Below, in pieces: positions 1,984 through 63,663 of a stretch of 64,000 nt of DNA. Position numbers and translations under genes: made by a program. The notes under the pieces are model-generated. The model was not told the origin of the DNA. It made no database searches and saw only the letters and a program-made list of their open reading frames with translations. Source of the stretch: Cenarchaeum sp. (GTDB taxonomy: Archaea; Thermoproteota; Nitrososphaeria; Nitrososphaerales; Nitrosopumilaceae); NCBI GenBank assembly GCA_965242695.1, contig CBDESU010000001.1, forward strand, positions 1,408,001 through 1,472,000, in the 5' to 3' direction. Numbering within the stretch: position 1 is the first letter of the stretch; each line of letters begins with the position of its first letter.

Positions 1984-2683
1984 TAGCCATGCCAGAGGCA
2001 GGCATGGGCAGCTTCGGATACTGCGGCAGGGGGCAGTATTGTAGGGGCGCCGCGGTTCAAGGCCAGTGGGCGCGGCGCGGCAGGCACATCCGCCGCCGCA
2101 TACGGTAGAATGCGGCCGCTTCCTGCACAACCACCGCCCTACCACAGCACCCATGTGACACCAAGGGCGGCCTCCACGTGATTGCAGATTGGAGGCACGC
2201 CGCAGCGGCAGGAGCCGTAGCCGCCACCACTGCCCGCGCAGGGCGCACAGTCAGGGGCGTCAACACATCAGATTCGTCCCCGACAGGCTCGGACGATTCG
2301 CCATTAGGGCACCTCAATCCCGATTCCAGCTACAGGGAGGCACGGTGCGGCACCCGCGGTCAGTCTTGGTGCCATCGCCAAGGCCGATCCCGCCGCCCAT
2401 GCCCCGCACTACGCCAACCAGGCCTGCCACTGCCGGTCCCGACTCACCCCTCCACTCCCCGCCGCTCATGTCGCGGCCGCCCCTGAGCATGGCACATGGC
2501 CACCCCTGCTAACGCCCCCCCCCCACCTGCGACATGCACAACTGTCATGTCCGTCTAGGGCGCCACCGTGCAACCTGTTCGCGCCGATCCACGCCTAGAC
2601 AGCGGGGTCGTCATGAGCACATACGACCAGCTGCGATCGGCCAAGAGGGATGGTTCATATAGGGCCCGTAGGCGCCGGCTCCC

Positions 2684-2747
2684 GTGGGGGTGTCGCCTCT
2701 CCAGGCGGCATCACCGAGCGTCCTAAGTAACTAATTTGTTGCTTTTT
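2684..2747 (+). ncRNA. Putative small RNA (type A, copy 1), convergent with and overlapping the 3' end of gene 2723..3886
   Basis: TTCATATA box at 2654-2661; hairpin GGUGUCGCC-UCUCCA-GGCGGCAUC with two G-U pairs valid only on this strand; ends in TTTTT. Block 2681..2747 is 66/67 nt identical to 54880..54946. Confidence 0.65.
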
Positions 2748-3886
2748 ATTGATCGTCGGAGTTCCAAGCCAGATACCACCTCTATGTCAGCCGAGTGCCG
2801 GAGTGTCTCTCCCACCAGCCTAGACTTGTCCCCGACATAGACAAAAGCGTCATTGTCACGGACAGACTGGACATCCTCGTCAAGCTTGAAGATCTTGGGC
2901 GATCCCGACAGCTCGAACGCCTTGCGCACAACGGCGGAGTATGTGGCGGACTGCTTTATGGCCATGGGAAACGAAACCGGCTTGGGCCCTGCATCGTCCA
3001 GCACCCCGTCTTTGCCCCCTGACTCATCACCCCGTCCCCAGTCCATGCTAGGGGGAGCAGGATCACCAAGACTGTCAATGGAGAGGAACACGGTCGGCTT
3101 TGCGATGTATGGGACTATGTTGATGGGCTTGTTCGAATACCACGCATAGCTCCACAGGTTGCCGTGCCCGTAGACGGAGACGTTGACGTCAAACGAGTAC
3201 GGCTCCCACACCTTGCGAACATTGTCCGGCTCGAGTTTAAGGTACGCAGAATACAGCTTTGCGTCAGTGAGGAAGGCAAGCAGGTCCGCGCAGGCTATGG
3301 TTGCATCGCACTCGTCGCCCTTCCAGTACACCTTGGGCCTGTGCTTTACCAGCATGTCCCATGCACGGGTCTGCTTTGACGTGAACGAGTCGATCCTTAT
3401 GTCCATGTCGTCCGGGATTTTCTTGGCAGTGTGAACGTAACTCTGGGCCGTCAGGTATGAGAACATTGGCCCAAGTCTGTCGATGAACGACCTAGTCCGT
3501 ATGCTACGGGCAGAGCCTCCACTACCACCCACTGAAACAGTCGGGTGCGTGATAGGCGAAAGGCCGACGAACGAACAGTGAATGCACTCGATCGTGTCCT
3601 GGATCGAAGACACCAGCTTGTCGGCAAGCGCTATCGCCTTACGCCTCCCGTGTTTGAGCAGGCCGTTCGTAGACATGAACGGCAGACTGGTGTCAATGTC
3701 AAACCTGCCCTTGAGCCGGTCAAATTCCGCGACAAAGGCCCTCGTGAATGCATCCTCGTCGGGTATGACGACCCCGATGCCCAGCTGCGTGCTGTGACCC
3801 GTATACTTTTCCTCGCCCGGCGCCCCCCGCGCCTCAGCCACCGTACCCCTGTTGAAGGGCTTTGAGTCAAACGCGGCAACCCGCAC
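2723..3886 (-). CDS. Uncharacterised 387-aa protein, putative RNase H-like/DUF3800-like fold
   Basis: Long ORF with full-length paralog at 25321..26484 sharing AFDxKPF, GIGV, LGPMxSY, IDxF, WxGDEC, IACADxLxFLTDAKL and SGLELR. Start could alternatively be ATG 3898. Confidence 0.75.
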   Translation of the reverse strand: MRVAAFDSKPFNRGTVAEARGAPGEEKYTGHSTQLGIGVVIPDEDAFTRAFVAEFDRLKGRFDIDTSLPFMSTNGLLKHGRRKAIALADKLVSSIQDTIECIHCSFVGLSPITHPTVSVGGSGGSARSIRTRSFIDRLGPMFSYLTAQSYVHTAKKIPDDMDIRIDSFTSKQTRAWDMLVKHRPKVYWKGDECDATIACADLLAFLTDAKLYSAYLKLEPDNVRKVWEPYSFDVNVSVYGHGNLWSYAWYSNKPINIVPYIAKPTVFLSIDSLGDPAPPSMDWGRGDESGGKDGVLDDAGPKPVSFPMAIKQSATYSAVVRKAFELSGSPKIFKLDEDVQSVRDNDAFVYVGDKSRLVGETLRHSADIEVVSGLELRRSIKSNKLVT

Positions 3887-4333
3887 AGCGGCCTTCATTC
3901 CGCCTTCTATAACAGTGTTTAGCATGGCACGCAGGGTGTGTTTGGGCCGCCGCGAGCGTCAATCTGCCCCCGTGTGGCATACGAGTACAAGGATGTCAAT
4001 GCCTGCCACTGTCGCACATTGTCCCGTGCATGCACGGCAGTCCATGGATCAAGTCAGGCAGCAGCTGCGCGGTCTTGCGATCCCAAGCGGCGGGCCGTGC
4101 ACAATCACCTACGGGGATCGTGTGCAATCGGGGGTCGATATCCGCCGATGATGCCAGCCGTGGAGCCTAGGCCGGCGGCAGGGAGCGCATCCCGGGGGCT
4201 TGTGCCCACTGCGCTCGAAGGCTTTGGAGGTGGCGCGTCCGGCAGCCTGCGGCGCCGCGCTCGATTCCCGGGGCACAGAGGCGCCGTCATGGCGCCCCCT
4301 GCGCCCCCGCCTCGTGCAGGGAGTGCGCCCGGG

Positions 4334-13194: not shown

Positions 13195-13297
13195 GCGGCG
13201 GCCGACAGGACCGGCGCAGGTGGTCCCACTTTGCAAGGAAAGATATGCGCGCGGCGATCTTCGGGCGGCGGCCGACAGGACCGGCGCAGGTGGTCCC
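13195..13297. repeat. Direct repeat of about 34 nt (GGCGGCGGCCGACAGGACCGGCGCAGGTGGTCCC), two copies
   Basis: Copies start near 13195 and 13264. Confidence 0.75.
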
Positions 13298-19205: not shown

Positions 19206-19570
19206 GGGCCGCGGCGGCGACAATGGCGCAGAATTGCAAGGACATCCGCAGCCCAAGGCCCTGACGGGAGAGGCATATCGGGTTCCGCCCCCCCCCCTCC
19301 CCCGATCGCCGCGCCGCGCCGCCTCCGGTACAGGCGCGGCCGGGCCGGCGCGGCTCCACCGATGTGGCATCCCAATGGCGGCCAGCCCCCCGGACTCGCG
19401 GGCGCAGTATGGGCGGCAGCAGTGGTCGCACTGGCTGCAAGGGAGTGGACGGCGGTGCGGGGGGCAAGGGCGGCGGACCACCTCGAGTCCGCCACAATGA
19501 CGGATGCGCGCGCGCGAGGAGCCCCGATGTGCGTGCAGGACTTAAAGCGTCCCGGCCCCGAGCCGCCGCG

Positions 19571-25035: not shown

Positions 25036-25320
25036 CCCGCCCACGGCTAGCGCCGCCTCTTGACGTGGCTGCGGCGCTTTGGCGCTGCGACCCGCCCAAG
25101 GCGGCGCCGCCGTAGGCAGGCAAGGGGCCGTAGGATCAGGCTACGCTGGCCGGCCCCAGTCCCGCGGGCCGCCGGCCGGTACCTAGCCAACGCGTATCAG
25201 CAGACGGCCGCCGCCAGCCCCGGAAGCCATGCGGTACAGAGCGCGCCGGTTGCACCCCACGCCCCCAAACGCGCATCAAATCAGGGCAACTTATACATAC
25301 CCACGCCCATGCCCCGCACC

Positions 25321-26484
25321 GTGAAGGTCGTAGCGTTTGACGCCAAGCCGTTCGAGAGGGGCAGCCTGCGCAAGAGCGAGCAATCGGGCGATCGCAGTAG
25401 CGCGGGGACGTTCAAGACACAGATGGGCATCGGCGTCTCTATCAGCGACAAGGAGGCGTTCAAGGACAGGTTCACGGCCAAGTTTGCCGAGATCCGCCGC
25501 AGCCTCAAGCTCGGCGAGCAGCTTCCCATATGCCCGAGCAGCCGCCTGCGAAGCTTTGGGGACGAAAAGGCCGCAGAACTCGGCGGTCAGCTCGTAGATT
25601 CCGTGCAGGACCTGATCGAAGACGTGCACTGCTTCTTTGTGATTTTGCCGCCGGACAACCCCAGTACGGTTCGCGTCGGAGGGGCCGGAGGCGCGACCAT
25701 GGAGATTCCCACCTGGCTTTTTGTGAAAAACCTCGGGCCGATGCTCTCATATATGACGGCACAAGACTACCTGTACAAGCGCAGCGGCATGGGCATGAAG
25801 GACACGGAATTCCACATCGATGCGTTCATCTCAAAGCGCACCAAGTCGTGGGATATCCTTGTCGACAAAGTCGACCCCAAGGTGTTCTGGAGGGGCGACG
25901 AGTGCAACCCGTTCATAGCATGCGCCGACATATTGACTTTTCTCACGGACGCCAAGCTGCGCCGCCAGCACCTCAAGCTGAACCGCCAGAACGTAACCAA
26001 GGTTTGGAAGGGCCACGAGTTCGAGACGACGGCCCACTATGTGACGCGCAATGCCCTCGCCATCCACGCATGGTACACCAACGAGGCGATCGATGCGTGG
26101 CCGTACGTGGCGAGGCCGACCGTCTTCCTCGCAGTCGACAGCATGGCGCGCGATCGCCAAGCGGGGAGCGGCGGCGGCGATGCAGCGCCGGACCCGGCGG
26201 CCGCCGGCCCAGAGGGCGCAGAGCAGCCCAAGACGGCCTCGAAGGTCTTTGCCAAGTCCGCCGTCTATGCAGCGGCCGTACGGTACGCTTTCAACCACTC
26301 CGGCTCGTTCAAGCTCTTCAACCGCTACGAGGACAGCGCCCATGTCCACGACCACGACGTCTTCGTCTACGCCGGCCCCGAGTCGGAGAGGATCGGCAGG
26401 GTGCTACAAGACACGTCCCGCGTCAAGGTCATGTCCGGCCTCGAGCTAAGGGACAAAGTAGAAAAAGTAGAAAAACAGAGTTAA
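25321..26484 (+). CDS. Uncharacterised 387-aa protein, paralog of 2723..3886 (putative RNase H-like/DUF3800-like)
   Basis: TTATAC box at 25291-25296; motifs AFDAKPF, HIDAF, WRGDECN and IACADILTFLTDAKL. Alternative start ATG 25309. Confidence 0.78.
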   Translation: MKVVAFDAKPFERGSLRKSEQSGDRSSAGTFKTQMGIGVSISDKEAFKDRFTAKFAEIRRSLKLGEQLPICPSSRLRSFGDEKAAELGGQLVDSVQDLIEDVHCFFVILPPDNPSTVRVGGAGGATMEIPTWLFVKNLGPMLSYMTAQDYLYKRSGMGMKDTEFHIDAFISKRTKSWDILVDKVDPKVFWRGDECNPFIACADILTFLTDAKLRRQHLKLNRQNVTKVWKGHEFETTAHYVTRNALAIHAWYTNEAIDAWPYVARPTVFLAVDSMARDRQAGSGGGDAAPDPAAAGPEGAEQPKTASKVFAKSAVYAAAVRYAFNHSGSFKLFNRYEDSAHVHDHDVFVYAGPESERIGRVLQDTSRVKVMSGLELRDKVEKVEKQS

Positions 26485-26526
26485 CCTACATCGAATGAGG
26501 ACGTCCCCTGGGAAAGCGGCGCCCTC
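26462..26526 (-). ncRNA. Putative small RNA (type B, copy 1), convergent with the 3' end of gene 25321..26484
   Basis: TTATATA box on - strand at 26555-26549; hairpin GAGGGCG-CCGC-UUUCCCA-GGGG-A-CGUCCUC; T-runs at the end; covaries with the copy at 52346..52415. Confidence 0.65.
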
Positions 26527-26782
26527 GGCATGGCTTCCCCGCGGCGCGTATATAAGGATATCTCGCGCACGGGGCGGATCCTAGGCGTGGCCGTTCCCTA
26601 CCACCAGGATCCTGACCGCCCAAACGAGTCCCCGGCCCGATCCGGCGTCGACAGGGTGCCGTCGGGCAGGCGGTCAGCAGGCCGAGTCGGATGAGCCGCA
26701 GGTAGCGGCCGCTGCGGCTGCCTGCCGCCCCCCTCTTCTCCGCCCCGCCTCCGCTGCCTGGCGAGCCTCCGCCGCGGCCGCC

Positions 26783-37133: not shown

Positions 37134-37138
37134 CAATC

Positions 37139-38122
37139 TCACCTTGTAGATACAAGCCATGTGATGAGCCTTTCATACTCTTCGATTGAGTATTCGAGGG
37201 GAACGGCAAGGTATTCTCTAGGATCGTCCGACTCGCCGCCATCGTCTTCTTCGCCGCCATCGTCTTTGCCTTCCTCACCATCCTCGTACTTCTCGTCATC
37301 TACATCCTCATACCCCTCGTCATCGTCGCCTTCGGGCCGCTCTTCCGTTGTCTTTGCAGAGACCTTGAAGTAGGAGCGCTGGCCCGAGTGGGACACGCGA
37401 AGCCAAGACATCAGATCGTAGTACCCACTGGCAAGATCCTTGGCAGACTTTTTCGCGTGCTGTTCGGGAAGGGTGTCCGCCTTGGTGAATACGATCGCCA
37501 GCGGGTCGGTAAGGCGATCTCTCGAGTCGACGCGGCCGGCCCTCTTTTTGATTTCATGAATCTTTTTCATGGCGTTTACGGCCTTTGGCTCGTCCGTATC
37601 CCATTCGTCGATCCCCTCGCAGTCGATCATCAAGACGTACTTTGTTGCATGTATGAGGTACGCCCCGTCGCCCTGTAGCATCTCCACCACCTGCCCGTCA
37701 ATGTCGGCGTCGACGGACTCGGAGAGGTGACCCGAGTAGTCCTCGCCGGACATGTCACGCAGCACCATCTCTATCTTCGTCGTCATGCCCTTCATGCGGT
37801 GTATGTTGATCTTCAGGCTCGGATAGTCATTCTTCATGGTCGGCGGCGGGAACGACCCCCTCTTCATGCGGCGGATCGTCTTGTTTATCTCGTCGTGGCC
37901 CGAGACCATCTGGGCCTCCCACTTGCCCCTGCTGCGCGGCACCCACCGGGTCGAGAGCGTGTGCTTGACAAGCGCAGCGACCACCGTCTTGCCCGCGCCC
38001 ACTTCGCCCACGAATGCGATCGTGTCCCTGCCTTCGTACTCCTGCCGGGTATCGCGTATGAGCCGGTCGATGTCGGATGAGTCATACTCGGCACTCTCTG
38101 CATGCGGCTCTGGCGTCGACAC
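37139..38122 (-). CDS. TRAFAC-clade GTPase with acidic C-terminal insert (copy 1)
   Basis: G1 GEVGAGKT, G2 FPPPT, G3 DMSGE, G4 FTKAD, G5 VSA; TTATATG box about 22 nt upstream of GTG 38122. Confidence 0.85.
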   Translation of the reverse strand: MSTPEPHAESAEYDSSDIDRLIRDTRQEYEGRDTIAFVGEVGAGKTVVAALVKHTLSTRWVPRSRGKWEAQMVSGHDEINKTIRRMKRGSFPPPTMKNDYPSLKINIHRMKGMTTKIEMVLRDMSGEDYSGHLSESVDADIDGQVVEMLQGDGAYLIHATKYVLMIDCEGIDEWDTDEPKAVNAMKKIHEIKKRAGRVDSRDRLTDPLAIVFTKADTLPEQHAKKSAKDLASGYYDLMSWLRVSHSGQRSYFKVSAKTTEERPEGDDDEGYEDVDDEKYEDGEEGKDDGGEEDDGGESDDPREYLAVPLEYSIEEYERLITWLVSTR

Positions 38123-38472
38123 GGCGGTAGGGCCCAAAATTAGCATATAAGCTATAGCACAGCCGCGGGCACGCGATACGTACATCGCCCGCATGCCGGC
38201 GCCTGTCGCGGGGCGGCGGCGAGCGTCCATAGGGCGGCCATCCTGCGCGCGGCCCGCGGCAGCTCGCCGCGGGCGCACCGGCACGGTATCTCCGCCCACG
38301 CTTGCGCTCAACGTGCCGGTACGGCGCTGATCAGGACAGTGTCGAACGCGGCTGTGCGGTGGTTCCCACGTGCAATTGATGCGATGGCAAGCAGGATCAG
38401 GAACCAGGCCGCTTCGCGTGGCGCTCGCCATGGGCCGCTCCGGACGAGCCCAGCGCGGCCACATGCCTGCCC

Positions 38473-39873
38473 CTAGTGCCTGAGCTTGCGCTCGAGGCGC
38501 CGCTTGAGCACTATGAACATCGATCCGAGCACGGGCAACGAGGCGATCCTGACTAGGTGGTCGTCCATGCCGCCCTTGCTCGTGTGCAAGAAGGCCGCAA
38601 ATGTGCGCTCGACCGCCGCCGCGGCCCGTGCCGCGTAGTCGCCCTGCGGGTCCACCATCCCCAAGTCTCCGAACAGGGCGTAGTATGCGGCGGATGCGGC
38701 AAACACGCCTCCCACCCAGGCAGACACCCTGCCAAAGCTCTCGCCGTACCTGCACAACACGTTGTAGCCGCTGGTGAGCGAAAGGTACCTGCGCCACCTA
38801 GGGCGCAGGGCCACCCCGCCCCCGGCGTCCGTCCTGTAGCAGCGCCGCATGTCCATCTCCCTCACGTAGAGCCGTCCCGCCTCCTCGTACATGAGCCAGT
38901 ACTCGTAGCACTCCCGGAGGCTTCGGTAGACCGCCAGTATGTCTGAAAGCGACAACGATGACGGATCGTCGGCAAGTCGGCGCTCGTCGAGTATGGCGTA
39001 CGGGTCGCCGTCGGCATTCCACACCGTGTCCGAGCGGAACCTGATCCGGGTCATGTTCGTGGTGAGGAACGAGACGTTCGAGAGCGATCGCCCAAAACGG
39101 ACCCGCTCCTCCTTGTCGAACCGCGTGTGCCTAAATCTGGCCGGCCCCTTGAAGACGGTGCCCCCTATTCCATCCTCGAACACGACCTCGCCGCCGAATG
39201 ATACCCCGTCGAACGCAGCATCGCCAAGACTGCTGTCGGCAAGGTCGGCCGCTCCGCCGAACTCGCAGCCGCTGACCTCTAGGCTCCCCAACTTCGCGTA
39301 TCGGAGCATCGCGCTTCCGATCTCGCAGTCCGCAATGCTTGCCGACGGGGCGAATGCGAGCGCCGCATCGCAGGACTCGAAGGCGCACCGCTCGAGCTCG
39401 ACGGCCGCCTCACCGTCCACGTCATCATGATCGTCGAGCCGCCCGCCGTTTTCGCCGCTCCCAAAGCCCGTCTTTCGGAGGGACAGGACGCCGGCCTTTA
39501 CAGCCACCATCGAGAGCCGCCCCGAGAATTTGGCTTCGGTAAAGACGACCGCCCCGCACGCCACGCCGTTAAACACCATGTCGCCTGTGAACCTTGCATC
39601 GGCAAAGTAGACGGGGCGCCTCGTGTCGATGTCCCTGACGGTGACGGATGGTATCCGACATCCGACGAACAGGATGGGATCGCTCCCGTCTGCGGCGAAC
39701 TCGGTTCGCAGCTCGTCAAGGAAGGCGGCCCTTGCCTCGTCGTCATACTCGCCGCCGGCGGCGTGTAGGATGCAGCTGCTTTTGCCGCGCCAGCGCGGCC
39801 TTGGGCAGTGGTACTCGCGGTCGACTCCGGTCCAAGCGTCGGTGTACGTGTGAGAGTATGTGCATGTCCGCAT
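38473..39873 (-). CDS. Pentapeptide-repeat protein with C-terminal membrane (ion-channel-like) segment
   Basis: N-terminal C..C.LH motif; 'FADARF', 'FTEAKF' and 'ARFRHTRF' repeats; YGES followed by TM helices. Confidence 0.75.
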   Translation of the reverse strand: MRTCTYSHTYTDAWTGVDREYHCPRPRWRGKSSCILHAAGGEYDDEARAAFLDELRTEFAADGSDPILFVGCRIPSVTVRDIDTRRPVYFADARFTGDMVFNGVACGAVVFTEAKFSGRLSMVAVKAGVLSLRKTGFGSGENGGRLDDHDDVDGEAAVELERCAFESCDAALAFAPSASIADCEIGSAMLRYAKLGSLEVSGCEFGGAADLADSSLGDAAFDGVSFGGEVVFEDGIGGTVFKGPARFRHTRFDKEERVRFGRSLSNVSFLTTNMTRIRFRSDTVWNADGDPYAILDERRLADDPSSLSLSDILAVYRSLRECYEYWLMYEEAGRLYVREMDMRRCYRTDAGGGVALRPRWRRYLSLTSGYNVLCRYGESFGRVSAWVGGVFAASAAYYALFGDLGMVDPQGDYAARAAAAVERTFAAFLHTSKGGMDDHLVRIASLPVLGSMFIVLKRRLERKLRH

Positions 39874-41294: not shown

Positions 41295-41569
41295 GCAACG
41301 GATGCAGCCAGGGCGGCGCATGGTACAGGGGCGGTGACGGCGGGCGCGCTGGCACGGCTTTTGCGCGCTGGCGGGCCGCGGCCCCGCGCCACCCGCCAGA
41401 TCTCAGCCGCCCTGTCGCGCCAGGCGGGCCGCATGCGGCAAAAACCGGGGCGCGGCCGGCCCGCATGCCGACATTTGGCCGTCTCTTTCCCAGCCGCGAC
41501 CAAAATCGCCGCCTATCCGGCCGCCGCCAAGATTTGCCCCCGCATACTCTCATCGCCTAACCCGCCTAC

Positions 41570-41753
41570 TGCGCTCAGCGAGCAGAGGTTCTACAACATT
41601 GCATGCTACGCGTACGGGGCCGACCCGGGGTACAACGGCGACCGGCTCGGCTTCGACTGCCTCCCATGCGGCAGGGCAGTGACGTGCCAGTACGAGTGCG
41701 AGCGGATGTCGTCTAGCTGTGACCGGCTCTTGGAAGGGTGCCTGGTCGAGTAG
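41570..41753 (+). pseudogene. DUF4344 metallopeptidase 3' fragment (copy 5)
   Basis: LSEQRFYNIACYAYGADP...SSSCDRLLEGCLVE*. Confidence 0.85.
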
Positions 41754-41911
41754 GGGCGGCGCCTGCGCAGGGAATGCCGCCTTTGCGGCGGCGCGCGCGG
41801 CGCACCCTACGAGGCACCTACGTGCGGAGGCAGGCGGAGCCCTGCCGCAACTGAGCCCTGCGCAATCGCCACAGCCATCGAAAGAGGGCGCTGCGGGGGG
41901 TCGGCATCGGA

Positions 41912-46012: not shown

Positions 46013-46471
46013 TCATTCGATCCGTGCACCGCGATTCGCCCCGCCCCGCACCCGCTGATTCTCATCACGCATGCCGCGGGCGGGCGCCGCATTGGATCGA
46101 GTTTCACGGAGGGGGGAGGATGCCGCGCATTTGTCTGTCCCCGGGATGCAGGCCTGCAAATCCCCTCGTGTCGCATCCGCACCTTGCAAAGTCCTCCTTG
46201 TCGAGCACCACGACATGGCTGCACACCGTGTCCCTCCTGCCGTCGTACCCAGCCCCGATGTTCCTTGCGTGGCAGTATGCCAGCTTGCCTCCGGCTAGCT
46301 CCACGAGGGAATCTGACTCTTCGAAGTCGTCAGGCTTGATTTCGAGGGGACGAAAGTGGCATCTAGGTGCAGATGCAATCTCTTCGGCAATGCCGCGGCT
46401 TTTCGCCACGTCCTGGCACCCCTTTTTCCCCGCATGTTGCCCGTCGTGTGGGCTAGCTGTTCCGCCTTCAT
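46013..46471 (-). pseudogene. GAP1-N2-like gene copy 2, frameshifted and internally deleted
   Basis: KAEQLAHT, LAYCHARNIGAGYDGRRDT; DPMRRPP joined directly to the C-terminal QRVRGGANRG. Confidence 0.8.
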
Positions 46472-46476
46472 AAATT

Positions 46477-47535
46477 TCACCTTGTGGATACAAGCCATGT
46501 GATGAGCCTTTCGTATTCCTCGATCGAGTATTCGAGGGGAATCACCAGGTAGTCGCCAGGATCGGCAGGCTCGTCATCCTCGGCTGCCTCGGCATCATCA
46601 TCCTTGCTTTCCTCGTCATCTTCGTACTCTTCGCCGTCGCCATCTTCGTACTCTTCGTCATCATCATCGGGCCGCTCTTCCGTCGTCTTTGCAAACACCT
46701 TGAAGAAGGAGCGCGGGCCCGAGTGGGACACACGAAGGCACGACATCAAGTCTGGGTACTTGCCGGCAAGGTCCTTGGCCGACCTTTGCGCGTCCTGCTC
46801 GGGGAGGGCGTCTGTCTTGGTAAATACGATCGCCAGGGGATCAGTAAAGCGATTCGTCGAGTCGATACGGTCGATTCTCTCCTTGATTTTGCGAATCATT
46901 TTTATGGCGTTTACGGCCTTTGGCTTGTCCGTGTCCCAATCGCCGATCCCCTCGCAGTCGATCATCAAGACGTACTTTGTCGCGTGGACAAGGTACGCCC
47001 CGTTGCTATTTAGCATCTCCGCCACCTGCCCGTCAATGTCGTCGTCATCGTCGGCGGACTCGGAGAGGTGCCCCGAGCAGTCCTCGCCCGGCATGTCGCG
47101 CAGGACCATCTCCAGCGTTGCCGACATGCCCTTCATGCGGTGTATGTTGATCCTCAGGCTCGGATAGTCGTTCTTCACGGTCGGCGGCGGGAACGATCCC
47201 CGCTTCATGCGCCGGATCGTCTCGTTTATCTCGTCGTGGCCCGAGACCGTCTGGGCATCCCACCTGCCCCTGCTGCGCGGCACCCACCGGGTCGAGAGCG
47301 TATGCGTGACAAGCGCGGCGACCACCGTCTTGCCCGCGCCTACATCGCCCACGAATGCGATCGTGTCCCTGCCGTCGTACTCCTGAAGGGTCTCGCGTAT
47401 GAGACTGTCGACGCTGGATGCCCGCCGCACGGCTCCGGCCACCGCACCGAGTAGGCGCAGGGTCTCGCGTATGAGACTGTCGACGCTGGATGCGCCGTGC
47501 TCGGCTCCCTCCGCATGCTGTTCTGGCGTCGACAC
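46477..47535 (-). CDS. TRAFAC-clade GTPase copy 2
   Basis: GDVGAGKT, FPPPT, DMPGE, FTKTD; in-frame internal duplication (ASSVDSLIRETL x2); identical C-terminus EEYERLITWLVSTR. Confidence 0.85.
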   Translation of the reverse strand: MSTPEQHAEGAEHGASSVDSLIRETLRLLGAVAGAVRRASSVDSLIRETLQEYDGRDTIAFVGDVGAGKTVVAALVTHTLSTRWVPRSRGRWDAQTVSGHDEINETIRRMKRGSFPPPTVKNDYPSLRINIHRMKGMSATLEMVLRDMPGEDCSGHLSESADDDDDIDGQVAEMLNSNGAYLVHATKYVLMIDCEGIGDWDTDKPKAVNAIKMIRKIKERIDRIDSTNRFTDPLAIVFTKTDALPEQDAQRSAKDLAGKYPDLMSCLRVSHSGPRSFFKVFAKTTEERPDDDDEEYEDGDGEEYEDDEESKDDDAEAAEDDEPADPGDYLVIPLEYSIEEYERLITWLVSTR

Positions 47536-47847
47536 GGCAGTGGGGTCCAAAATTGGCATATAATCTGTAGCATGGCCGCGGGTGCGGGATCCGTGCATCG
47601 CCCGCATGCCGGCGCCCGTCGCGGGGCGGCGGCCCGCGGCAAGAGAAGCCCCGAAGTCGGCCCGCGGCCATGGTGCGGTGGGCCTGCGCGCGGCAGCGTC
47701 GGTTTGCATGCCGCGCCGCCGATCCTTCGGAGTATGACGTAGGCGGGGATGCATCCCGCCGGCCCGCCAAGCCGCCTTCGTGCAACACCGAAGGATACCT
47801 CGACGTGATCGCATGGATTATAAAAACGGGCAACAGGTCGACGGACG

Positions 47848-51690: not shown

Positions 51691-52238
51691 ATGCCAGAGT
51701 ACGCAATGGACAGTCCCACCTTGGCGGAGATTTCGGACAGGGTCCCGGCGCTGGTAAAGGCCGGCATAAGGGGCCTGACCGACGACGAGAGGCTGGGCCT
51801 GGTGATAGCGCTCGCAGAGGGCGGGAGGATGACATTCTCCGAGATAAAGGCAAAGTACGGCCTCGACCCCAGCACGCTGGGCGGCCACCTGAGCGCGCTG
51901 CAGAGCGGAAACCTTGTGCGCAGCTACTACGAGAAGGGTTCGGAGGCGCATACTCGTACTACGAGGCGACCGAGCTGCCCGAGGCCGTCATAGGCGCGCT
52001 GCTCGCGTCCGTGTACGGGGCCGAGGCCGGCGAAGGGAGGCCTCCGCACCCCGGCGGTGGCTACCCGCGGGCGCTACTGGGTATGGAGGAGGGCGGCCCG
52101 AGCCGGCAGACACAAGTCGCCGCCGGGCTGCATGGTAAGAGCCACATGCAGGCTGCGGCGCGCCCGCCCCCGATCTCCATCCCTAACAACGACACGGGTG
52201 GAGAGGCGCAATTCCCAGGCCTCGTGTACAGGGTCTGA
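51691..52238 (+). pseudogene. ArsR-like winged-helix regulator, frameshifted near 51950
   Basis: MTFSEI..LDPSTLGGHLSALQSGNLV, with YSYYEATE continuing in another frame; ATATAT box upstream. Confidence 0.65.
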
Positions 52239-52345
52239 AGCAGGGAGGCGGCGGAGCCATGGCGGCCGCGTGTGCGGCGCCCCTCTTGCGTGCGAGGTGC
52301 ACGGCAAGCAACAACAGGACGGACAGGGCAGGCAGGGACAAAGCA

Positions 52346-52415
52346 AAAAAATAAGTAAAAGGACGAAGTTAACCGACATTCGAATGAAGGCGTCCACTGG
52401 GAAAGCGGCGCCTTC
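52346..52415 (-). ncRNA. Putative small RNA type B, orphan copy 2
   Basis: CTATATG box at the same spacing as copy 1; hairpin GAAGGCG-CCGC-UUUCCCA-GUGG-A-CGCCUUC; compensatory changes relative to 26462..26526. Confidence 0.62.
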
Positions 52416-53653
52416 GAGATGGCTCGCCACTGCGCGCATATAGGCACATCTCGCGGACGGGGCAGATCCTAGGCGCGGCCACCCGCCCCGCCCCCCGCCC
52501 CGCCCCGCACAGCCCCCCCCCCCACGCGGCGCAGCGGGGCGGGATGTCGGAGGGTTGCAAGCCGCGGCGCGGCCGCTCCGGCGGGGCCTCGTCATACCCG
52601 CCTCACATCGTCGCATCCGATGGCGGCATCGCCGACGGGGCGCCTGCACCGCGGCGCCGTCGGCTTCCCGCTGCGCACCGGGCTCGCGCCCCGGCCGGCT
52701 GACGCGCCGCGTAGGCCGAGCGCGCACGGCATGCGGGCTAGGCCAGGCCACCGCCCTTATAGCACGCCCCAGCGGCCTTGGCTGCGTGGAGTGTGTCGGG
52801 ATCGAGGAGTTTGACGGGCCAACGCGCGAGCAGGCGGACGGACTCGCAGGCCAGCCCAATGGGCGCCCGCTACGCGAATGCCCGTCCCCGGACGAGCCTA
52901 GAAAGGCGGCAGGGCCAAGCCATGGCGAGTGCGAACACTGCAGTCTCGGCAGGCTGTACCCCTCGCCCATGGCCTGGCCCCGCGGCGCGCCACGGGGCGG
53001 GGCTGCAGGGCGCACCGGCCTGCCCGCCGGCAGGCGGCAGGCGCATGCGGGCGCAGCCGAGGAGATGGGCGGTATGATAGCCCCTGGCAGGATGCAGGGA
53101 CGTCTGATGCCCTGCACGTCCAGGACGCGCAGTCACCCCCGCATGCGCGACATCTGCACACCCGCCGAGTTTGGGCAGGCCGCCGGAGAAACAGCACGGT
53201 GCACCCTGCGGACTACCCGGCCGACCGGGGCGCCTCGAACGATCCCGCCCGGGGCGCCGACAGGCAGATCAGGGCACAGGCGGGTGCGAAGAGTCCGGGA
53301 TGCCGGCAGATGGCATTGCCGGCGGCGCGGGCTGCCCGACCGCCCATATCTTCGAAATTCGGGAAAAAATTGTGGGAGTGGATCGCCCGTGCGTGGCCGC
53401 CATGCCGCTCCCCGCCCCGATGCTGGACGCGGCCCGGACGGTTCAGATCGCGCTGTGCCGCCTCTGCATTCGTACGGGAGGAAAGCGCCGCCGCCGATCT
53501 CGGTCTCGGGCCAGAGCCGGCCCCGCCCTGCGGAGGTGTTCCCGCCGCCGGATTTGTGCATGGACGAGAGGGCGGCGGACGCTGGAGGCAGGACCCTTGC
53601 ATAGCCTGGCGCCTCCGCCCCGGAAGGCCGCGGCAGGCGGCCCCGAGGGCGGG

Positions 53654-53992: not shown

Positions 53993-54882
53993 CAGGTAGT
54001 CCAGGCCCGAAGACTCCCCGACCTCGCGGCAAGCATTCGCGGCGGGCAGGGCACCCAGGGCCGCGCCGGCGCGCGGGCCGCGCCCGGACGCCGCTGCCAC
54101 GCTGTGCAGCCGGCGGCAAGATCCCCGCAGGGGCGCTTCGGCGGAACGCCACACGGGAACGGCTACGTTTGCGGGTGCGCCGCGCGCCCTGTCAGCAGGG
54201 CAGGACGCCGCGGCCGGCCGCCGCGGTGCGGCCAGCCCGCGCCCTCGTACCCGCACCCGGAACGGGAGATCTTGCAGGCGCCGCCTGCCGGGTCGAGCCG
54301 GTAGGCGCGGCTGTCCAGGCCGGCGCGGCCGCCCGCCCAGTGTGTTCTGCCATTGGCTCCAGCGGCCCCGCCCCCTGCAGGCAGTGCCAGCCGCGATCGG
54401 CCTGGACGCACGGCTTGCACGGGGCGGGTGGGCGCCGGTTCCCTGACTCGCACCTCCAGGCGGCACCGCCTGGCATCGCAAGCGACCGGCTTGTCGCCCT
54501 TGTCGATCGCCGAGGCTCCAGGCCCCGCACCGCCTCTGTTTCCGCGGGGCGTCGGGACGAGAACGCGGGCGGGATGATCGTCTTTGCCGTATGTGCATGA
54601 ACGGCATCAGTGCGGCCCACGGGGGGCGTTGCGGCAAGGGCGGCGCTCGAGTGCCCCGGCCCTCCGTGCGCCGATCTATGACCGTCGGCGCGGTCGAGAC
54701 TGCGCGCGGCGCAAGGCGGCGCAACGCGGCAGAGGTTGCGGCGCATGGGCGCCACGGCCACGCGTGCGGGGCGGACAGCCTGATGCGGGTTGCAGCAGTA
54801 TGCCCCCTCTGCAGGCGATCAGTTCGCAGCACCAGGCCGTCAAAACACAGGGGTTATATTGGGCGGCTAGGCGCCCGCCCCC

Positions 54883-54948
54883 GTGGGGGTGTCGCCTCTC
54901 CAGGCGGCATCACCGAGCGTCTTAAGTAACTAATTTGTTGCTTTTTTT
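54883..54948 (+). ncRNA. Putative small RNA type A, orphan copy 2
   Basis: TTATAT box at 54854-54859; block 54880..54946 is 66/67 nt identical to 2681..2747; ends in T7. Confidence 0.65.
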
Positions 54949-56133: not shown

Positions 56134-57264
56134 CTAGCCCCGGCGCCGCCGGCCGCGCGCGGCGCGCCGCCGGCCGCCCTGCCGATCCCCCTCGCCGCGC
56201 CGCTCCACGTCGAACCCGCCGGCCTCCAAGAAGCCGAGTATGTGCCGCACGGACAGGACGTCGTCGCGGTTGTACTCTAGGACGGACGGATCGATCGGGG
56301 TGCCGTCTGCGACGTGCCTCTCGAACGCGAGCGCCGCGTCCAGGCCGTCCATGCCAGAGTGTGCAAAGCCGTAACCGAGCACGGACCCGAGCGTCTTGAG
56401 AGCGTACGACTGGCACGGGACGGCGAATGCGCGCCGGACGAGCGAGCATGCGTCGATGTGCCGCATCGATGCAAACGCGCCCGGCTCGATGCCGTTGCGC
56501 GCCATTGCCGCCGCAGTCACCCTCTTGTCAAAGCCCGTCCCAGAGTATGCGACTAGCGCCGAGCACCCGTCGGACTGGATCGACCCGAGGTGGTCGACAA
56601 ACTCGGAGAGCAGGCGCCGCGCGCCGCGCTCCCGGCGGCTGCGAAACGCAGACCAGCCGGCTCCCCCGCCTCCCCCGCCGGCGCCCATGTCGACCATGAA
56701 CTGCTCTATCCTGCCGCGGTGCAGCACGCCGATCAGCCAGACCGCCGTCGATGCCGTGTCCGTCTCGATGTCGAATATGGCCATCTCCTCGTCCGGCGGC
56801 AGGACCATGTGGGACCGCTGTATGACGCGGTTCTCGGCGGCGGCGCGCGCCTTTGTCCGGGTGCGCTCGATGAACGACGCGGGCAGGCCCGACAGGGAGG
56901 CGGCGGCCCGCACGTCGGGCACGCGGGCCATGTCGTCGACCGTGCGGATGTCGGCCCTGTGCAGTCCGTACTCGCGCGAGTAGCCGACCCCGTGCAGCCA
57001 CGTGACGGGCCACGAGCCGAGCGAGCCCGGGTCGCCGAGGGGCCTGACAGGGAACGGATGGCTGCCGTCCGGCGGCGCCCGGGTCGTCCGGCGGACGATG
57101 CGCGCAGGCGGGCCGTCGTCATCCTTGGAGCGGCCGGCCGCGCCGCCTTTCGCTGCCGATGGCTGGTCGGGCGCGTCAGCGACGGGGGTTCCGAGGATGC
57201 TAAGGTGGCTGTAGGATGCGGGGGGCACATAGGGCGCCACGCCGCGCCGCCTCGGTGCGGGCAA
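56134..57264 (-). CDS. RNase_H_2 (YprB-like, DEDD exonuclease) domain protein; start uncertain
   Basis: IFDIET, YSGTGFD, HIDA, SYALKTL and LEYNRDDV motifs; HhH-like LHGVG. Confidence 0.8.
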   Translation of the reverse strand: MPAPRRRGVAPYVPPASYSHLSILGTPVADAPDQPSAAKGGAAGRSKDDDGPPARIVRRTTRAPPDGSHPFPVRPLGDPGSLGSWPVTWLHGVGYSREYGLHRADIRTVDDMARVPDVRAAASLSGLPASFIERTRTKARAAAENRVIQRSHMVLPPDEEMAIFDIETDTASTAVWLIGVLHRGRIEQFMVDMGAGGGGGGAGWSAFRSRRERGARRLLSEFVDHLGSIQSDGCSALVAYSGTGFDKRVTAAAMARNGIEPGAFASMRHIDACSLVRRAFAVPCQSYALKTLGSVLGYGFAHSGMDGLDAALAFERHVADGTPIDPSVLEYNRDDVLSVRHILGFLEAGGFDVERRGEGDRQGGRRRAARGRRRRG

Positions 57265-57663
57265 TTAACCCGTTGCGGCGGCTGCAGGGCGGACGGCAGT
57301 GGCGGCAGGGCCACAAGGGGTAAACAGGATGGCGGCGCTGGCCGCGGGATCTGGCCGAGTCGGGCGGCAGTGGCGGCAGGGCCACAATGGGCAAAGGCGG
57401 CGCGCAGATGACGGGCGGCAGGGCGTGTTCGAGGCGACGGGGCGGAGAAGAGGGCGCACATGTGCCTCAAGCCTGCCAGTAGACGAGCAGTCAGGCGTGG
57501 CACGAAGGCGTGGGCCGCAGGCGTGGACATACGCCTCGATCATACGTTGCGATCGCAGGCAGTGAAACCTAGGCACTTGTAACTATACGATCACATCTGA
57601 TCTTATAATCAGGCGTCAAATTCAGTGATTAACATATATAATCACCGTGTCCGATCGGAAAGC

Positions 57664-59625
57664 GTGAGTAAGACCACCACGGTGGATATAACGCCCGACA
57701 AGAGCCTCATGCAAAAGATAGGCGCGGTCGGCTACAGGACGGAGCAGGCCATCTCCGAGTTCATCGACAACGCCATCGATGCGCGCCTGCCAGGCGAGGC
57801 CGAGCGGGTCAACGTGTCGCTGGACTTTGTAAACCGTACTATTACCATCTCCGACGACGGAAGGGGCATGACGCTCGAAGAGCTGCAACGGGGCCTCACC
57901 ATAGCAAAGGGCAAGGGCGGCCCTGCGCTGGCTGCCGCAGGCCTGGGAACGTTCGGCATCGGCCTCAAGAGCGCCTGCGCCGCCCTAGGCAAGTCGTTTA
58001 CGATAGTGACCTCGACCGAGGGATCGAAGGCAGAGTACGTCGTCGAGTACGACGAGGACAGATGGCTGCGCGACGGAGATCTCGGCTGGGGCAACTTCGA
58101 GGTGTCGACGAGGCCCCGCACCAGTGCCCACCGCGGCACGGCCGTCTCGATCTCGCGCCTAAAGGTGCCGCTGTACCCGAACCAGACGACCACCTTCAAA
58201 AAGAGCTTTGGTGTGAGGTACGGCGCATACCTGAGTTCCGGCCAAGTACGGTTGTACGTGAATTCTAGGCCCTGCAAAGCGGCCGAACCCGACATCAAGG
58301 ACGGGAGCCGCAGGGACCTGAAGATTCCGCTGAGTAACAGGAAATCCATGCGCGGGTGGATTGGACTCCTCGAAAAGAGGTCGATCAAGGGCGACTATGG
58401 AATGCACCTGTACAAGGACGGTCGCCTGATAAGGGCGTTCGACAAGTTCGGGATGCGCAGACATCCCGAGGTGGCCAAGGTGATTGGCGAGTTGCATATG
58501 GATCACGTACCGGTCAACTTTCACAAGTCCGGGTTCCTGACGGAGTCGTCCGAGTATGCAGAGTGCGTCGATGCGTTCAGAATGCATCCAGAGGTGGGGC
58601 ACATCATGCGGAGTGCCTCGTCGAGAGCGGAGTCGCAACAGCCAGACTCCCTAGTGCAGTCCATCCTAGACCATACCAGTGGGGGTGCCGCAGGGATTCC
58701 ACTGGGACGCGTTGGACGGGACCGGGCAGGGCGCATCATGAAAGAGTTCACTGGGCCGTACATGACAACTGGCGCAGCAGGTGCATTTGAGGTCGTATTC
58801 AGGGACGGCGCCGACGACGACCTATATGAGATAAACATGCCAGAGTCAAGAGTCGGATCGCCGTATAGGATAGCCATCAACAGGAAGAGCCCCGTGTTCA
58901 GGACGGCCAGCAACCCGCTGTTCCTAGTCGGCATGATCAGGGCAGAGGCCGAAATGCTCGCATCTGCTGGCGACGGCGCCGGCGACATGGCAAATATGGT
59001 AAAGAGGCGCAATGTGCTCTGGTGCAAGTTTGCCAAGGACTGGTCGGCTCCGGCCACGCCGCGCCGCAAGACGGACTTTGTCACACGGAAACGACAGCAA
59101 CCACGACTTCCAGGCTACGGACTGGTCAGCGAGCTTGTCGAGATGCACGACCTAGTCTACGAGAAGTTTGCCGATCCATTCCAATTCACTGCGCTCAGCA
59201 CGCTAGCGAGGTTCCTGCACAACGAGTATACAATAGTGCCGTACCACATAGTCACGGAGAAGGGCATGGGCGAGCGCCTGTGCGATCTTGTAAAAAAGTA
59301 TTGGGGCGGCGAAGTCGTAGCACTACTGAACCCCGGCGAGGTCGAGGCGCGCACCGCAATGGATATCTCGGACAAAGGCAGACTCATCGTGGTCAGGGAA
59401 TACGCAGGACCGGCATCCGGAACATGGGCCAGCCCTGCAAAGGCATGGCTGGACCTAGCGTCGGAGTGCAAGAAGGCATGGATGTCAGGGTACAGAGACG
59501 AGCTTGCAGGGATACTTGGGCGGTTGCTCGAGGACAACCTAGTCGAGGTGTCCGCGATCAGATCCGCCGCCAAGAACAGAAGAATGGCAGGCATAGTAGA
59601 CGACTGCATAGGTGGGACATATTGA
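57664..59625 (+). CDS. GHKL (HATPase_c_3, MORC-like) ATPase with C-terminal AbiEi-like region
   Basis: AISEFIDNAID, ISDDGRGM, LGTFGIGLKSA and GT motifs; S5-like YKDGRLI; C-terminal TALSTL and ASPAKAWLDL; ATATATA box about 23 nt upstream. Confidence 0.85.
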   Translation: MSKTTTVDITPDKSLMQKIGAVGYRTEQAISEFIDNAIDARLPGEAERVNVSLDFVNRTITISDDGRGMTLEELQRGLTIAKGKGGPALAAAGLGTFGIGLKSACAALGKSFTIVTSTEGSKAEYVVEYDEDRWLRDGDLGWGNFEVSTRPRTSAHRGTAVSISRLKVPLYPNQTTTFKKSFGVRYGAYLSSGQVRLYVNSRPCKAAEPDIKDGSRRDLKIPLSNRKSMRGWIGLLEKRSIKGDYGMHLYKDGRLIRAFDKFGMRRHPEVAKVIGELHMDHVPVNFHKSGFLTESSEYAECVDAFRMHPEVGHIMRSASSRAESQQPDSLVQSILDHTSGGAAGIPLGRVGRDRAGRIMKEFTGPYMTTGAAGAFEVVFRDGADDDLYEINMPESRVGSPYRIAINRKSPVFRTASNPLFLVGMIRAEAEMLASAGDGAGDMANMVKRRNVLWCKFAKDWSAPATPRRKTDFVTRKRQQPRLPGYGLVSELVEMHDLVYEKFADPFQFTALSTLARFLHNEYTIVPYHIVTEKGMGERLCDLVKKYWGGEVVALLNPGEVEARTAMDISDKGRLIVVREYAGPASGTWASPAKAWLDLASECKKAWMSGYRDELAGILGRLLEDNLVEVSAIRSAAKNRRMAGIVDDCIGGTY

Positions 59626-62044: not shown

Positions 62045-62139
62045 GGCAGCGTAGTGGCCTCAAAGTGCGCATTTGTCGGCAGCGTAGTGGCCTCAAAGTG
62101 CGCATTTGTCGGCAGCGTAGTGGCCTCAAAGTGCGCATT
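62045..62139. repeat. Tandem repeat, 33-bp unit (GGCAGCGTAGTGGCCTCAAAGTGCGCATTTGTC), about 2.9 copies
   Basis: Units start at 62045, 62078 and 62111; no spacers. Confidence 0.95.
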
Positions 62140-62142
62140 CGG

Positions 62143-63663
62143 ATGCGAGATGTGCAACTATACATAGAACGCATCCCCCAAGCGCACCCGATGGCCGCCG
62201 TGGGCATTCCGGACGACGACGGCCTGTACAGGATCATGGAGCTGTCCAACCCGTGGTGGACGGGCGGGCGGGTTCAGGGCGGGCGCGTGCGCAAGTTCAG
62301 GCGGCCCGAGCATGCCGAACTGATGCGGCGCATGGCGGAGCATCCGGTGCAGGCCGTGCTCGGCGCGCGGCAGGTAGGCAAGACGGCCATGCTGTACCAG
62401 ATCGCAGCGGATCTTGTCGCCGCCAACGATCCCAGGCGGGTGATGTTCCTATCGCTCGACGAGCTCGGCCTGTTCCCGAGCGCCGACAACCTGCGCCGCA
62501 TGCTGGACCTGTACTGCCTCCGCACGCTAGGCGAGTCCGTGCACGGCCTGGAGGGGGAGACTTACGTCATCCTAGACGAGGTACAGGCCGTCCCCAACTG
62601 GCAGCAGGCGGCAAAGCCCGTCGTCGGCCGCGGCGGCCCGCTCAGGCTCATCGTGGCGGGATCGTCAAGCGCCGGCATGTTCGGAAGCCCCGAGCCGCTG
62701 GCGGGGCGGATGCGGCGCCAGGCAATGGCGCCGATGAGCTTTTGCGAGACCCTCGCGTTCAGGAACCATCCGCATGCAGAGGCGGCCGCCGAGGCGGGGG
62801 AGGGCCTGCGCGGGGCGCTTGCGGCGTCCGTCGAGGAAAAGGATCCGGCGGCGTTCCACGACCGAGCAAGAAACGCGATGCTGGAGCTCGCCCAGGCTCG
62901 GGACGGCCTCAGGGTGCGCCTCTACGAGTACATGGTGTACGGGGGATGCCCCGGCATCGCGGCAAGCAGGGACCCCGTGTACAAGGCATGCGAGCTGAGG
63001 CGGGCGGTGAAGTTGTCCATGTACGACGTCGTAAAGGCGGGCGGCGTAAGAAACCCGCGCGCGCTGGAGGGCCTGCTCTACATGCTAGCAGAGGGATCGC
63101 CCCGCCTGATCGACAAGGGCAGGTTGCAAAGGACGCTCGGGATGCACAAGGCCACGCTCGACGCATACCTCTACCTGCTGGAGGCGACGCACCTGCTCTC
63201 GTACTCGCACGCATACTCTTCGAGGACATCGGGCAGTACCCGCGCGCGGAGAAAGGCGCACGTATGCGACGTCGGCGTACGCAACGCCGTCCTGTCGATG
63301 AGCGATGCGAGCATACTCTCCGACCCGGCCGAGGCTGGCAGGCTGGCCGAGACGGTCGCATGCACCCACACGAGGCGGCTGTGGGAGTCGCTCGACCACA
63401 CAGCGATGCCGCACATGCCGCACTACTGGCGTACCGGCAGGGGAGACGAGGTCGACTTGGTGATGAGCATCCGCCGCAGTCCCGTCCCGATCGGGGTCAA
63501 GTACCGCCAGCATGTGGAGTCATCCGACCTCAAGGGCCTGTCGCACTTTGTCGACAAGTTCAAGCCCGGGGTGGCGCTGGCGCTGGTGCAGGACAGGGTG
63601 CGGCTCGTCGGCGATTCCACAGTAGCGATCCCGCTGTGGCTGTACCTGGTCATGTGCGGGTGA
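62143..63663 (+). CDS. AAA_14 ATPase with C-terminal DUF4143 domain
   Basis: NPWW, GARQVGKT, ILDEVQ, AGSS, LAGR, PMSF, YGGCP, DVG and EVDLV motifs. Confidence 0.9.
   Translation: MRDVQLYIERIPQAHPMAAVGIPDDDGLYRIMELSNPWWTGGRVQGGRVRKFRRPEHAELMRRMAEHPVQAVLGARQVGKTAMLYQIAADLVAANDPRRVMFLSLDELGLFPSADNLRRMLDLYCLRTLGESVHGLEGETYVILDEVQAVPNWQQAAKPVVGRGGPLRLIVAGSSSAGMFGSPEPLAGRMRRQAMAPMSFCETLAFRNHPHAEAAAEAGEGLRGALAASVEEKDPAAFHDRARNAMLELAQARDGLRVRLYEYMVYGGCPGIAASRDPVYKACELRRAVKLSMYDVVKAGGVRNPRALEGLLYMLAEGSPRLIDKGRLQRTLGMHKATLDAYLYLLEATHLLSYSHAYSSRTSGSTRARRKAHVCDVGVRNAVLSMSDASILSDPAEAGRLAETVACTHTRRLWESLDHTAMPHMPHYWRTGRGDEVDLVMSIRRSPVPIGVKYRQHVESSDLKGLSHFVDKFKPGVALALVQDRVRLVGDSTVAIPLWLYLVMCG

Follow-up and report, generated by a model that had tools for sequence, protein, structure and literature searches.

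A stand-alone copy of a candidate antisense small-RNA gene, normally convergent with a nuclease-like gene, in Cenarchaeum sp.

The window, i.e., the whole stretch of 64,000 nucleotides that was analysed, contains at 52334–52480 an isolated 148-nt copy (copy B) of the sequence at 26449–26592 (copy A), to which it is 80% identical. The copy A unit overlaps the last 12 codons of an uncharacterised nuclease-like gene on the opposite strand, referred to here as the parent gene. With middling confidence, copy B is taken to be a stand-alone copy of a small-RNA gene, which normally lies convergent with the gene of an RNase-H-like-fold protein and which is likely an antisense regulator. The conservation of the unit, its fold, its promoter- and terminator-like signals, its strand bias and the occurrence of further gene-less copies (orphans) follow directly from computation on the DNA. 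The coordinates of all features are collected in Table 1.

Table 1. Features of copies A and B, related loci and conflict-type genes (window positions, except for the contig-2 orphan).
Feature	Position	Strand	Remarks
Copy B, conserved block upstream of TATA-like box	52444..52480	-	32/37 identical to copy A; homology ends at 52480
Copy B, degraded TATA-like box CTATATGC, 28 nt before hairpin	52436..52443	-	matrix score 1.8
Copy B, hairpin, 30 nt, 12 pairs, one bulged A, UUCCC loop	52386..52415	-	MFE -17.8 kcal/mol; RNAalifold consensus, 4 sequences
Copy B, single-stranded spacer, formerly antisense of the parent's stop and last codons	52361..52385	-	unpaired in consensus fold
Copy B, T4 (52357-52360) and T7 (52345-52351), predicted terminator	52345..52360	-	sequence
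Copy B, final conserved bases (CTTTGTCCCT), end of homology	52334..52344	-	10/10 identical, then 0.38
Copy A, full unit	26449..26592	-	TATA box 26548-26555, hairpin 26497-26526
Copy A, T5 runs	26471-26475 and 26462-26466	-	part of unit 26449..26592
Parent gene of copy A, 391 aa, predicted N-terminal RNase-HII-like fold	25309..26484	+	AlphaFold2 model, Foldseek
Paralogous parent gene	2723..3925	-	41% identical to parent of copy A; sequence comparison
RNA unit of the paralog	2654..2747	+	TATA-like box 2654-2661, hairpin 2687-2715, T5 run 2743-2747
Second orphan, of the paralog's type	54853..54948	+	TATA-like box 54853-54860, hairpin 54886-54914, T7 run 54942-54948
Contig-2 orphan	G000:C2:1613218-1613329		covariance model only, E 5e-9
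Conflict-type genes, together	31675-35757, 37139-38797, 46477-47814, 57625-59625	+, -, -, +	
Conflict-type genes, together, continued	4777-7251, 62065-63663, 56134-57264	+, +, -	

Copy B and its relationship to copy A

In a blastn search of the whole 3.89-Mb genome, copy B finds only itself and copy A, the latter with 80% identity over 146 nt (E 6.7e-30). Both copies are located where the original prediction had placed them. In a comparison of the two 7-kb neighbourhoods the homology is confined to 148 nt, and the parent gene is absent at copy B. Beyond both ends of the homology the identity is 0.33–0.38, which is the random level. The remnant of the parent's 12 codons in copy B has an in-frame TAA, and no residual parent coding homology was found beside copy B. 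From the promoter side to the terminator side, the identity between the copies amounts to 0.86 in the block that precedes the TATA box, 6/8 in the box itself, 15/21 in the stretch between TATA box and hairpin, 26/30 (0.87) in the hairpin, 18/22 (0.82) in the spacer, 12/20 in the T-run region and 10/10 in the last 10 nt. Copy B is unchanged in two near-identical strains, and a third strain contains a copy-A-type element (contigs of four runs). A block resembling the one upstream of the TATA-like box of copy B also occurs in an orphan on contig 2 of the same genome.

Read on the minus strand, the outer stem is GAGGGCG/CGUCCUC in copy A and GAAGGCG/CGCCUUC in copy B, the inner G.G of copy A is a G-U in copy B, the sequence UUUCCCA is unchanged, and AUUCGA follows the hairpin in both copies, all in agreement with the original prediction. 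The spacing of the TATA box, which had also been described as kept, is not: a 1-nt deletion reduces the distance between TATA box and hairpin from 29 nt in copy A to 28 nt in copy B. The box itself changes from TTATATAC in copy A to CTATATGC in copy B. A shared small open reading frame was considered and rejected; a plus-strand ATG-GCT is present in both copies, but a 1-nt indel shifts the frame such that the peptides differ, while the ATG of a minus-strand small open reading frame is absent from copy B.

Around copy B, from ~52000 to 53600, no codon-position GC periodicity is observed, whereas genes of this genome normally have a GC3 of ~0.8; the stretch therefore looks non-coding or decayed. 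A C-rich low-complexity tract (52478–52523) adjoins copy B, and many short public contigs break or pile up there. In addition, a 12-nt direct repeat (CGGACAGGGCAG and CGGACGGGGCAG) is found at 52320–52331 and 52454–52465; the former flanks copy B immediately to its left, and the latter lies within the promoter-upstream block. This repeat may be a trace of the event that made the orphan.

Organization of the unit downstream of parent genes

Homologues were examined in this genome, in same-genus genomes, in other genera and in metagenomes. Nearly all fetched homologues of the parent gene have, downstream of the stop codon, a unit of ~110 bases that is normally arranged tail-to-tail with the nuclease-like gene, and the unit is represented by 19 hairpin-bearing loci of Nitrosopumilaceae-type archaea from several genera. 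Opposite to the gene its elements follow each other in the order TATA-like box, ~26–36 nt, hairpin, spacer of 17–35 nt and T-run. At the parent loci the spacer runs antisense to the stop codon and the codons before it, and the T-run lies inside the coding end, spacer and T-runs together falling within the parent's last 8–12 codons with perfect complementarity to the parent mRNA.

The stems of the hairpins are wholly different among the subtypes (GAGGGCG.., GGGGUGUCG.., UGAAAAUGU.., GCGAAUAGU.. and GGGUGCC..). What is kept in the subtypes is the hairpin form, consisting of a stem of 5–12 pairs, which in many cases includes one mismatch or bulge, together with a C-rich loop. No conserved neighbouring gene was found within 1.5 kb of the parent and its unit, so that the module is made up of one gene and one RNA unit. 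Searches against Rfam revealed no family at gathering score anywhere in the window, and permissive scans of both copies gave chance-level matches only (E 6.5 and 7.6).

The parent gene and its product

The AlphaFold2 model of the parent protein is globular (pLDDT 82), and its best solved matches in a Foldseek search are archaeal RNase HII and RNase HIII (E 2e-3, TM-scores of 0.45–0.49 on the target). These matches provide weak but consistent indications of an RNase-H-like fold, and several acidic residues are invariant or nearly so in the parent family. The precomputed source label on the parent is PF26630. No family was found for the parent protein in PADLOC, NCBIfam or PHROGs, nor in Pfam at the default threshold using a copy of Pfam without PF26630. 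With 24 family members, Pfam searches at E values up to 1 gave chance-level matches only, below the family cut-offs; twelve distant relatives yielded no Pfam family, and a profile had no match among PDB sequences. The parent protein has ~20 close homologues, with 56–87% protein identity. The family is rare, with 362 clusters among 1.84 billion representatives, and it is present, often in fragmentary form, in 14/401 genomes of the taxonomic family.

The codon usage of the parent of copy A changes abruptly at its 3′ end. GC3 is 0.83 in the gene body versus 0.25 in the last 12 codons, and the ratio of the lysine codons AAA:AAG is 2:23 in the body versus 3:0 in the tail. This switch to A-ending codons suggests that the nucleotide sequence itself, from which the T-runs of the opposite strand derive, is constrained. 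The idea that the hairpin loop masks a ribosome site of the parent was set aside; the parent mRNAs appear to be leaderless, their TATA box being located ~26–32 nt upstream of the start codon.

Promoter, terminator and strand signals

The genome encodes TBP, which marks it as archaeal, and has a GC content of 0.67–0.68. A promoter matrix was built from the promoters of its 45 tRNA genes, in which the distance from the first TATA base to the tRNA 5′ end is mostly 28–34 nt. The matrix scores, given for the RNA strand and then for the other strand, are 13.9 and 5.8 for copy A, 9.0 and 0.2 for the paralog, 10.0 and 5.0 for the second orphan, and 1.8 and −0.3 for copy B. For each of the first three the score is reached by a background fraction of ≤0.014. 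The promoter of copy B is the weakest of the set: its score is matched by 23% of random 60-nt windows and lies below those of 42/45 tRNA promoter sites. Among the 19 hairpin rows, which are not all independent and two of which represent one hairpin in a 27- and a 29-nt form, the best site on the RNA strand precedes the hairpin by 26–36 nt in 17. In 16 of the rows the RNA strand outscores the other strand, and the parent strand is higher in the remaining 3.

A run of T4 or longer is present 17–35 nt after the hairpin in 16/19 rows and absent at three loci (L040, L025 and L062). T-runs serve as transcription terminators in archaea. A T5 is found in only 1.6% of random 40-nt windows of the genome, and only 5/45 of its tRNA genes have a T4 within 40 nt of their end; with tRNA genes so rarely ending in T-runs, the assignment of the runs as terminators here draws on general archaeal knowledge. 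An intrinsic, hairpin-dependent terminator does not fit, as the T-runs of the RNA strand start 17–35 nt after the hairpin and not directly behind it, and on the parent strand of copies A and B no T-run was found after the hairpin.

The hairpins themselves also discriminate between the strands. When read as RNA, they contain 20 G.U pairs on the RNA strand versus 6 on the other (binomial p 0.009 for the 19 partly non-independent rows), and they are more stable on the RNA strand in 14/19 rows, the other strand being at least as good in 5/19. RNAalifold predicts for the four type-B sequences a consensus fold with one 5′ hairpin and an unpaired tail, with an energy of −15.6 kcal/mol on the RNA strand versus −6.9 kcal/mol on the other.

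Stem changes, covariation and hairpin stability

The stems of copies A and B differ by one double change and two single changes, and no pair is broken. The original prediction regarded these changes as the best internal evidence for a functional RNA. In simulations, four changes leave all pairs unbroken in 3.2% of cases if substitutions are uniform and in 23% if only transitions are allowed. Covariation, which had been proposed as a check, is non-significant in every subset that can be aligned by sequence. For the eight type-A sequences, with one pair changed on both sides, 179/500 shuffles reach the observed score; for three type-B sequences 346/500 do so, and for four, upon addition of the contig-2 copy, 70/500. 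Two pairs are changed on both sides in the latter alignment (G-C / G.U / A-U and G-C / A-U). Given the frequency of the pair-preserving outcome in the simulations and the non-significant covariation, the A/B stem comparison is only suggestive.

Compared with local 70-nt intervals, the stability of the hairpins is ordinary for GC-rich DNA here, with rank p values of 0.29 (copy A) and 0.19 (copy B); combined by Fisher's method over 14 loci, the rank p values give 0.011. Between the two copies, the hairpin of copy B is the more stable one (−17.8 versus −15.8 kcal/mol). A covariance model of the type-A hairpin does not recover copies A and B, and gives weak matches at the right place in two loci (L040 and L059); it thus provides no non-circular structural alignment across the subtypes. 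The stems of different subtypes were therefore compared by position and shape, without a sequence-anchored alignment, and their large differences are described and not counted statistically.

The earlier proposal of selection on RNA structure holds in part. The element does have the appearance of a functional, structured minus-strand RNA, but not by virtue of the stem changes between copies A and B. Support for the RNA comes instead from the anatomy of the unit, the promoter geometry and T-runs, the strand asymmetry, the break in codon usage, an evolution slower than that of the coding sequence and the existence of two further gene-less copies.

Other gene-less copies and rates of change

The genome contains three gene-less copies, each of which ends at the promoter and the terminator. 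In the second orphan the unit is followed by ~190 nt of decayed parent coding sequence. Its identity to the unit of the paralog is 0.47–0.50 before the promoter, 0.73 across the promoter, 0.97 in hairpin and spacer and 0.77 at the T-run, and the decayed coding sequence has an identity of 0.57–0.67 to the paralog, with one block at 0.80. The near-identity of the core could result from gene conversion and not from selection. In the contig-2 orphan the TATA box is at 28 nt and a T7 run is present. Its stem provides a second case of a pair changed on both sides (G-C to A-U), and no parent debris was found beside this orphan. Directly after its T7 run, an 18-nt tandem duplicate with an internal GGGCGCGCCC palindrome is observed (L073:1613-1648, on G000 contig 2).

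In one genome of the same genus, a type-B unit is found next to a parent gene that is broken. Five genomes of the genus contain only 4 type-B copies and 3 paralog-type copies, and a search of 149 other genomes of the family with the type-B model found no copy. Where parent loci can be compared, the RNA core changes more slowly than the gene. When the paralog locus is compared with its counterpart in a same-genus genome, the identity is 71.5% in the coding sequence and 90% in the segment comprising the hairpin and the start of the tail, with all but ~3 of ~65 core columns invariant. In the type-A group the RNA core is more conserved than the coding sequence in 6/6 pairs, by 0.04–0.15.

Alternative explanations

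It is possible, though on balance somewhat unlikely, that the unit is real at the parent loci and copy B is a non-functional relic of a deleted parent gene, whose hairpin would have been preserved by the frequent replacement of pairs in a G-C-rich stem by wobble pairs upon transitions. Such decay would agree with the degraded TATA box (score 1.8, with 0.23 of random windows as good), with an overall A/B identity of only 80%, with surroundings that lack coding periodicity and may be a decaying stretch, and with the 23% of transition-only simulations that preserve all pairs; moreover, the strain comparison of copy B involves two near-identical strains. A relic would, however, not be expected to have homology that stops exactly at the two ends of the unit (0.33–0.38 outside), a hairpin more stable than that of copy A (−17.8 against −15.8 kcal/mol) and both T-runs, in a genome where T5 is rare. 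The two other orphans, which share the truncation pattern, also speak against a relic, one of them with clear differential conservation.

Two further explanations concern the role of the unit as such. Instead of being an antisense regulator, the RNA might be a partner of the parent protein, either as a protein-binding antitoxin or by serving the RNase-H-fold enzyme as cofactor or guide, with its conserved hairpin and C-rich loop as the means of recognition. A hairpin and loop that are conserved beyond the need of a pure antisense RNA, a C-rich loop in all subtypes, the solitary pairing of one gene with one RNA unit, and a nuclease-type fold with conserved acidic residues would all suit this explanation, which is nevertheless quite improbable: the tail is complementary to the parent's own mRNA, as a cis-antisense regulator needs, and tandem RNA repeats of the ToxI kind are absent. 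Decidedly improbable is the proposal that the features act on the parent strand or as DNA, i.e., as a 3′-UTR stem-loop or a recombination site followed by an outward-facing promoter, with no minus-strand RNA being made. The TATA boxes are indeed nearly palindromic, with the parent strand scoring higher in 3/19 loci; for 5/19 hairpins the parent strand gives equal or greater stability, and the conservation runs ~35 nt past the TATA box. Yet the consensus fold on that strand reaches only −6.9 kcal/mol, the G.U pairs (20 versus 6) favour the other strand, and the fixed TATA–hairpin distance and the A-ending tail codons would have no role. Furthermore, there is no conserved downstream gene or small open reading frame, and the orphans have no terminal inverted repeats or target duplications.

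Comparison with known systems

The architecture of the unit is most comparable to that of type I toxin-antitoxin pairs with a 3′-overlapping antitoxin RNA, which may be regarded as its nearest architectural analogue. In txpA/RatA and bsrG/SR4 from Bacillus subtilis, the antitoxin RNA overlaps the 3′ end of the toxin gene and has its own promoter, and the toxins of type I systems are small hydrophobic peptides. Common to these pairs and the unit are a convergent, promoter-bearing RNA at the 3′ end of the partner mRNA and the occurrence as a solitary, patchy and often degraded pair. The partner here is not a small peptide but a 391-aa globular protein with a putative RNase-H-like fold. Type III systems of the ToxIN kind, which have RNA repeats in a tandem array ahead of the toxin gene, were rejected as a model, since the unit is single, lies downstream of the gene and is on the opposite strand; at copy A, Tandem Repeats Finder detects only a 9-nt repeat of 2.3 copies (26455–26475).

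The omega-RNAs of TnpB and IscB lie on the strand of the gene, inside the ends of IS200/IS605 elements. They resemble the unit in being non-coding RNAs that overlap a nuclease gene at its 3′ end, the nuclease having an RNase-H-type fold. The signals of the unit are, in contrast, on the opposite strand, no transposon ends were found, and the parent has no Pfam family above cut-offs. An omega-RNA of this type, which would go with a RuvC nuclease of the OrfB_IS605 family, was therefore rejected, the strand being wrong and the parent having no IS605-family signature. Mobilization as a MITE was rejected as well, as there are no terminal inverted repeats or target-site duplications at the ends of the three orphans and few copies in the genus.

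The unit has two of the attributes by which cis-antisense small RNAs are recognised. It has its own predicted promoter opposite the target, the one of copy B being, taken alone, weak (1.8), and at the parent loci it overlaps the target with perfect complementarity, whereas copy B has no adjacent gene and matches copy A in 18/22 positions of the spacer. The nearest archaeal precedent is RNA-257(1-4) from Sulfolobus solfataricus, a set of transposon-derived paralogous antisense RNAs whose target is the 3′ UTR of a phosphate-transporter mRNA and which are linked to faster decay of that mRNA (PMC3674436). The likeness consists in an archaeal origin, several paralogous copies, complementarity to an mRNA 3′ end and the location of some copies away from the target. 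RNA-257 differs in its transposon origin and its 3′-UTR target (PMC3674436), while the unit described here is tied to one gene family across several genera. In addition, the unit overlaps the coding end, has a conserved 5′ hairpin, belongs to a Nitrosopumilaceae-type lineage and is a prediction from sequence.

Genomic setting

Conflict-type genes are densely represented in the window, comprising a gene for a protein with TIR and STAND NTPase domains (1360 aa), two DO-GTPase2 genes and genes for a MORC-like HATPase_c_3 protein, an SF1 helicase (AAA_11/AAA_12), an AAA_14/DUF4143 protein and a protein of the RNase_H_2 superfamily. The window has the appearance of a defence island or variable island. 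A perfect tandem repeat with a 33-nt period and 2.9 copies (62045–62139) lies where the AAA_14/DUF4143 reading frame begins.

Other repeated sequences are also present in the window. A gene family is represented by four to five diverged copies with 61–90% identity (1185–1988, 9870–10676, 12394–13197, 18399–19210 and 41557–41758), and further large two-copy repeats include the pair 36772–38002 and 46111–47343. The closest pair of the window is a 300-nt direct repeat (242–541 and 24440–24739, 98% identity), with its second copy immediately upstream of copy A's parent gene. Outside the window, four long (95–97 nt) ARAGORN calls of tRNA-Leu or tRNA-Ile were noted in the same genome (G000 C1:407284-407555, C2:62097-62192 and C2:1303047-1303143), each starting with TGGCG after an A-run and having similar AT-rich upstream regions. 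They may be a repeated element or tRNA-like structures and not ordinary tRNAs.

Proposed function and implications

From the features of copy B and its relatives we infer transcription, the ends of the RNA and an effect on the parent gene. The minus-strand transcript of copy B is predicted to start at or just before the hairpin, around 52415, a position 28–29 nt after the first TATA base, which equals the distance between TATA boxes and tRNA 5′ ends in this genome. The predicted RNA would begin with the 30-nt 5′ hairpin with its C-rich loop, continue with an unpaired tail of 20–25 nt and end in a U-run, giving a total length of ~55–75 nt. At a parent locus the tail and the U-run have exact complementarity to the parent mRNA at its 3′ end, and the most likely function is therefore antisense control of the nuclease-like gene. 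Such control could proceed via duplex formation, mRNA decay or the collision of convergent polymerases. The RNA would be antitoxin-like, with a 5′ hairpin that stabilises it and may also bind protein. The gene-less copies may act in trans on the remaining parent mRNAs, or they may be heading to decay; copy B retains the hairpin and both T-runs, and its promoter is weakened.

An unlikely but broader interpretation is that these RNAs are the antitoxins or immunity RNAs of an unrecognised archaeal module of one nuclease and one RNA, and that the orphans are kept in the defence island as anti-addiction elements. The RNase-H-fold protein would then be held in check by the ~60-nt RNA with its 5′ hairpin, encoded tail-to-tail with it, and the orphans would be kept because they neutralise related nucleases, incoming or resident. 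A literature search returned nothing on an archaeal RNA-antitoxin system of this kind. To our knowledge, no such system has been described in archaea.

The regulatory RNAs of ammonia-oxidising archaea are almost unexplored. As an antisense small-RNA gene, the unit would be a small RNA that is linked to a gene family and kept across several genera, with promoter and terminator signals that are directly testable. It also offers a handle on a rare, patchy and often broken family of proteins with a putative RNase-H-like fold, situated in the defence-gene island of this window. Should the pair indeed consist of a toxin and an RNA antitoxin, the known range of RNA antitoxins would come to include archaea and a large toxin of the nuclease type.
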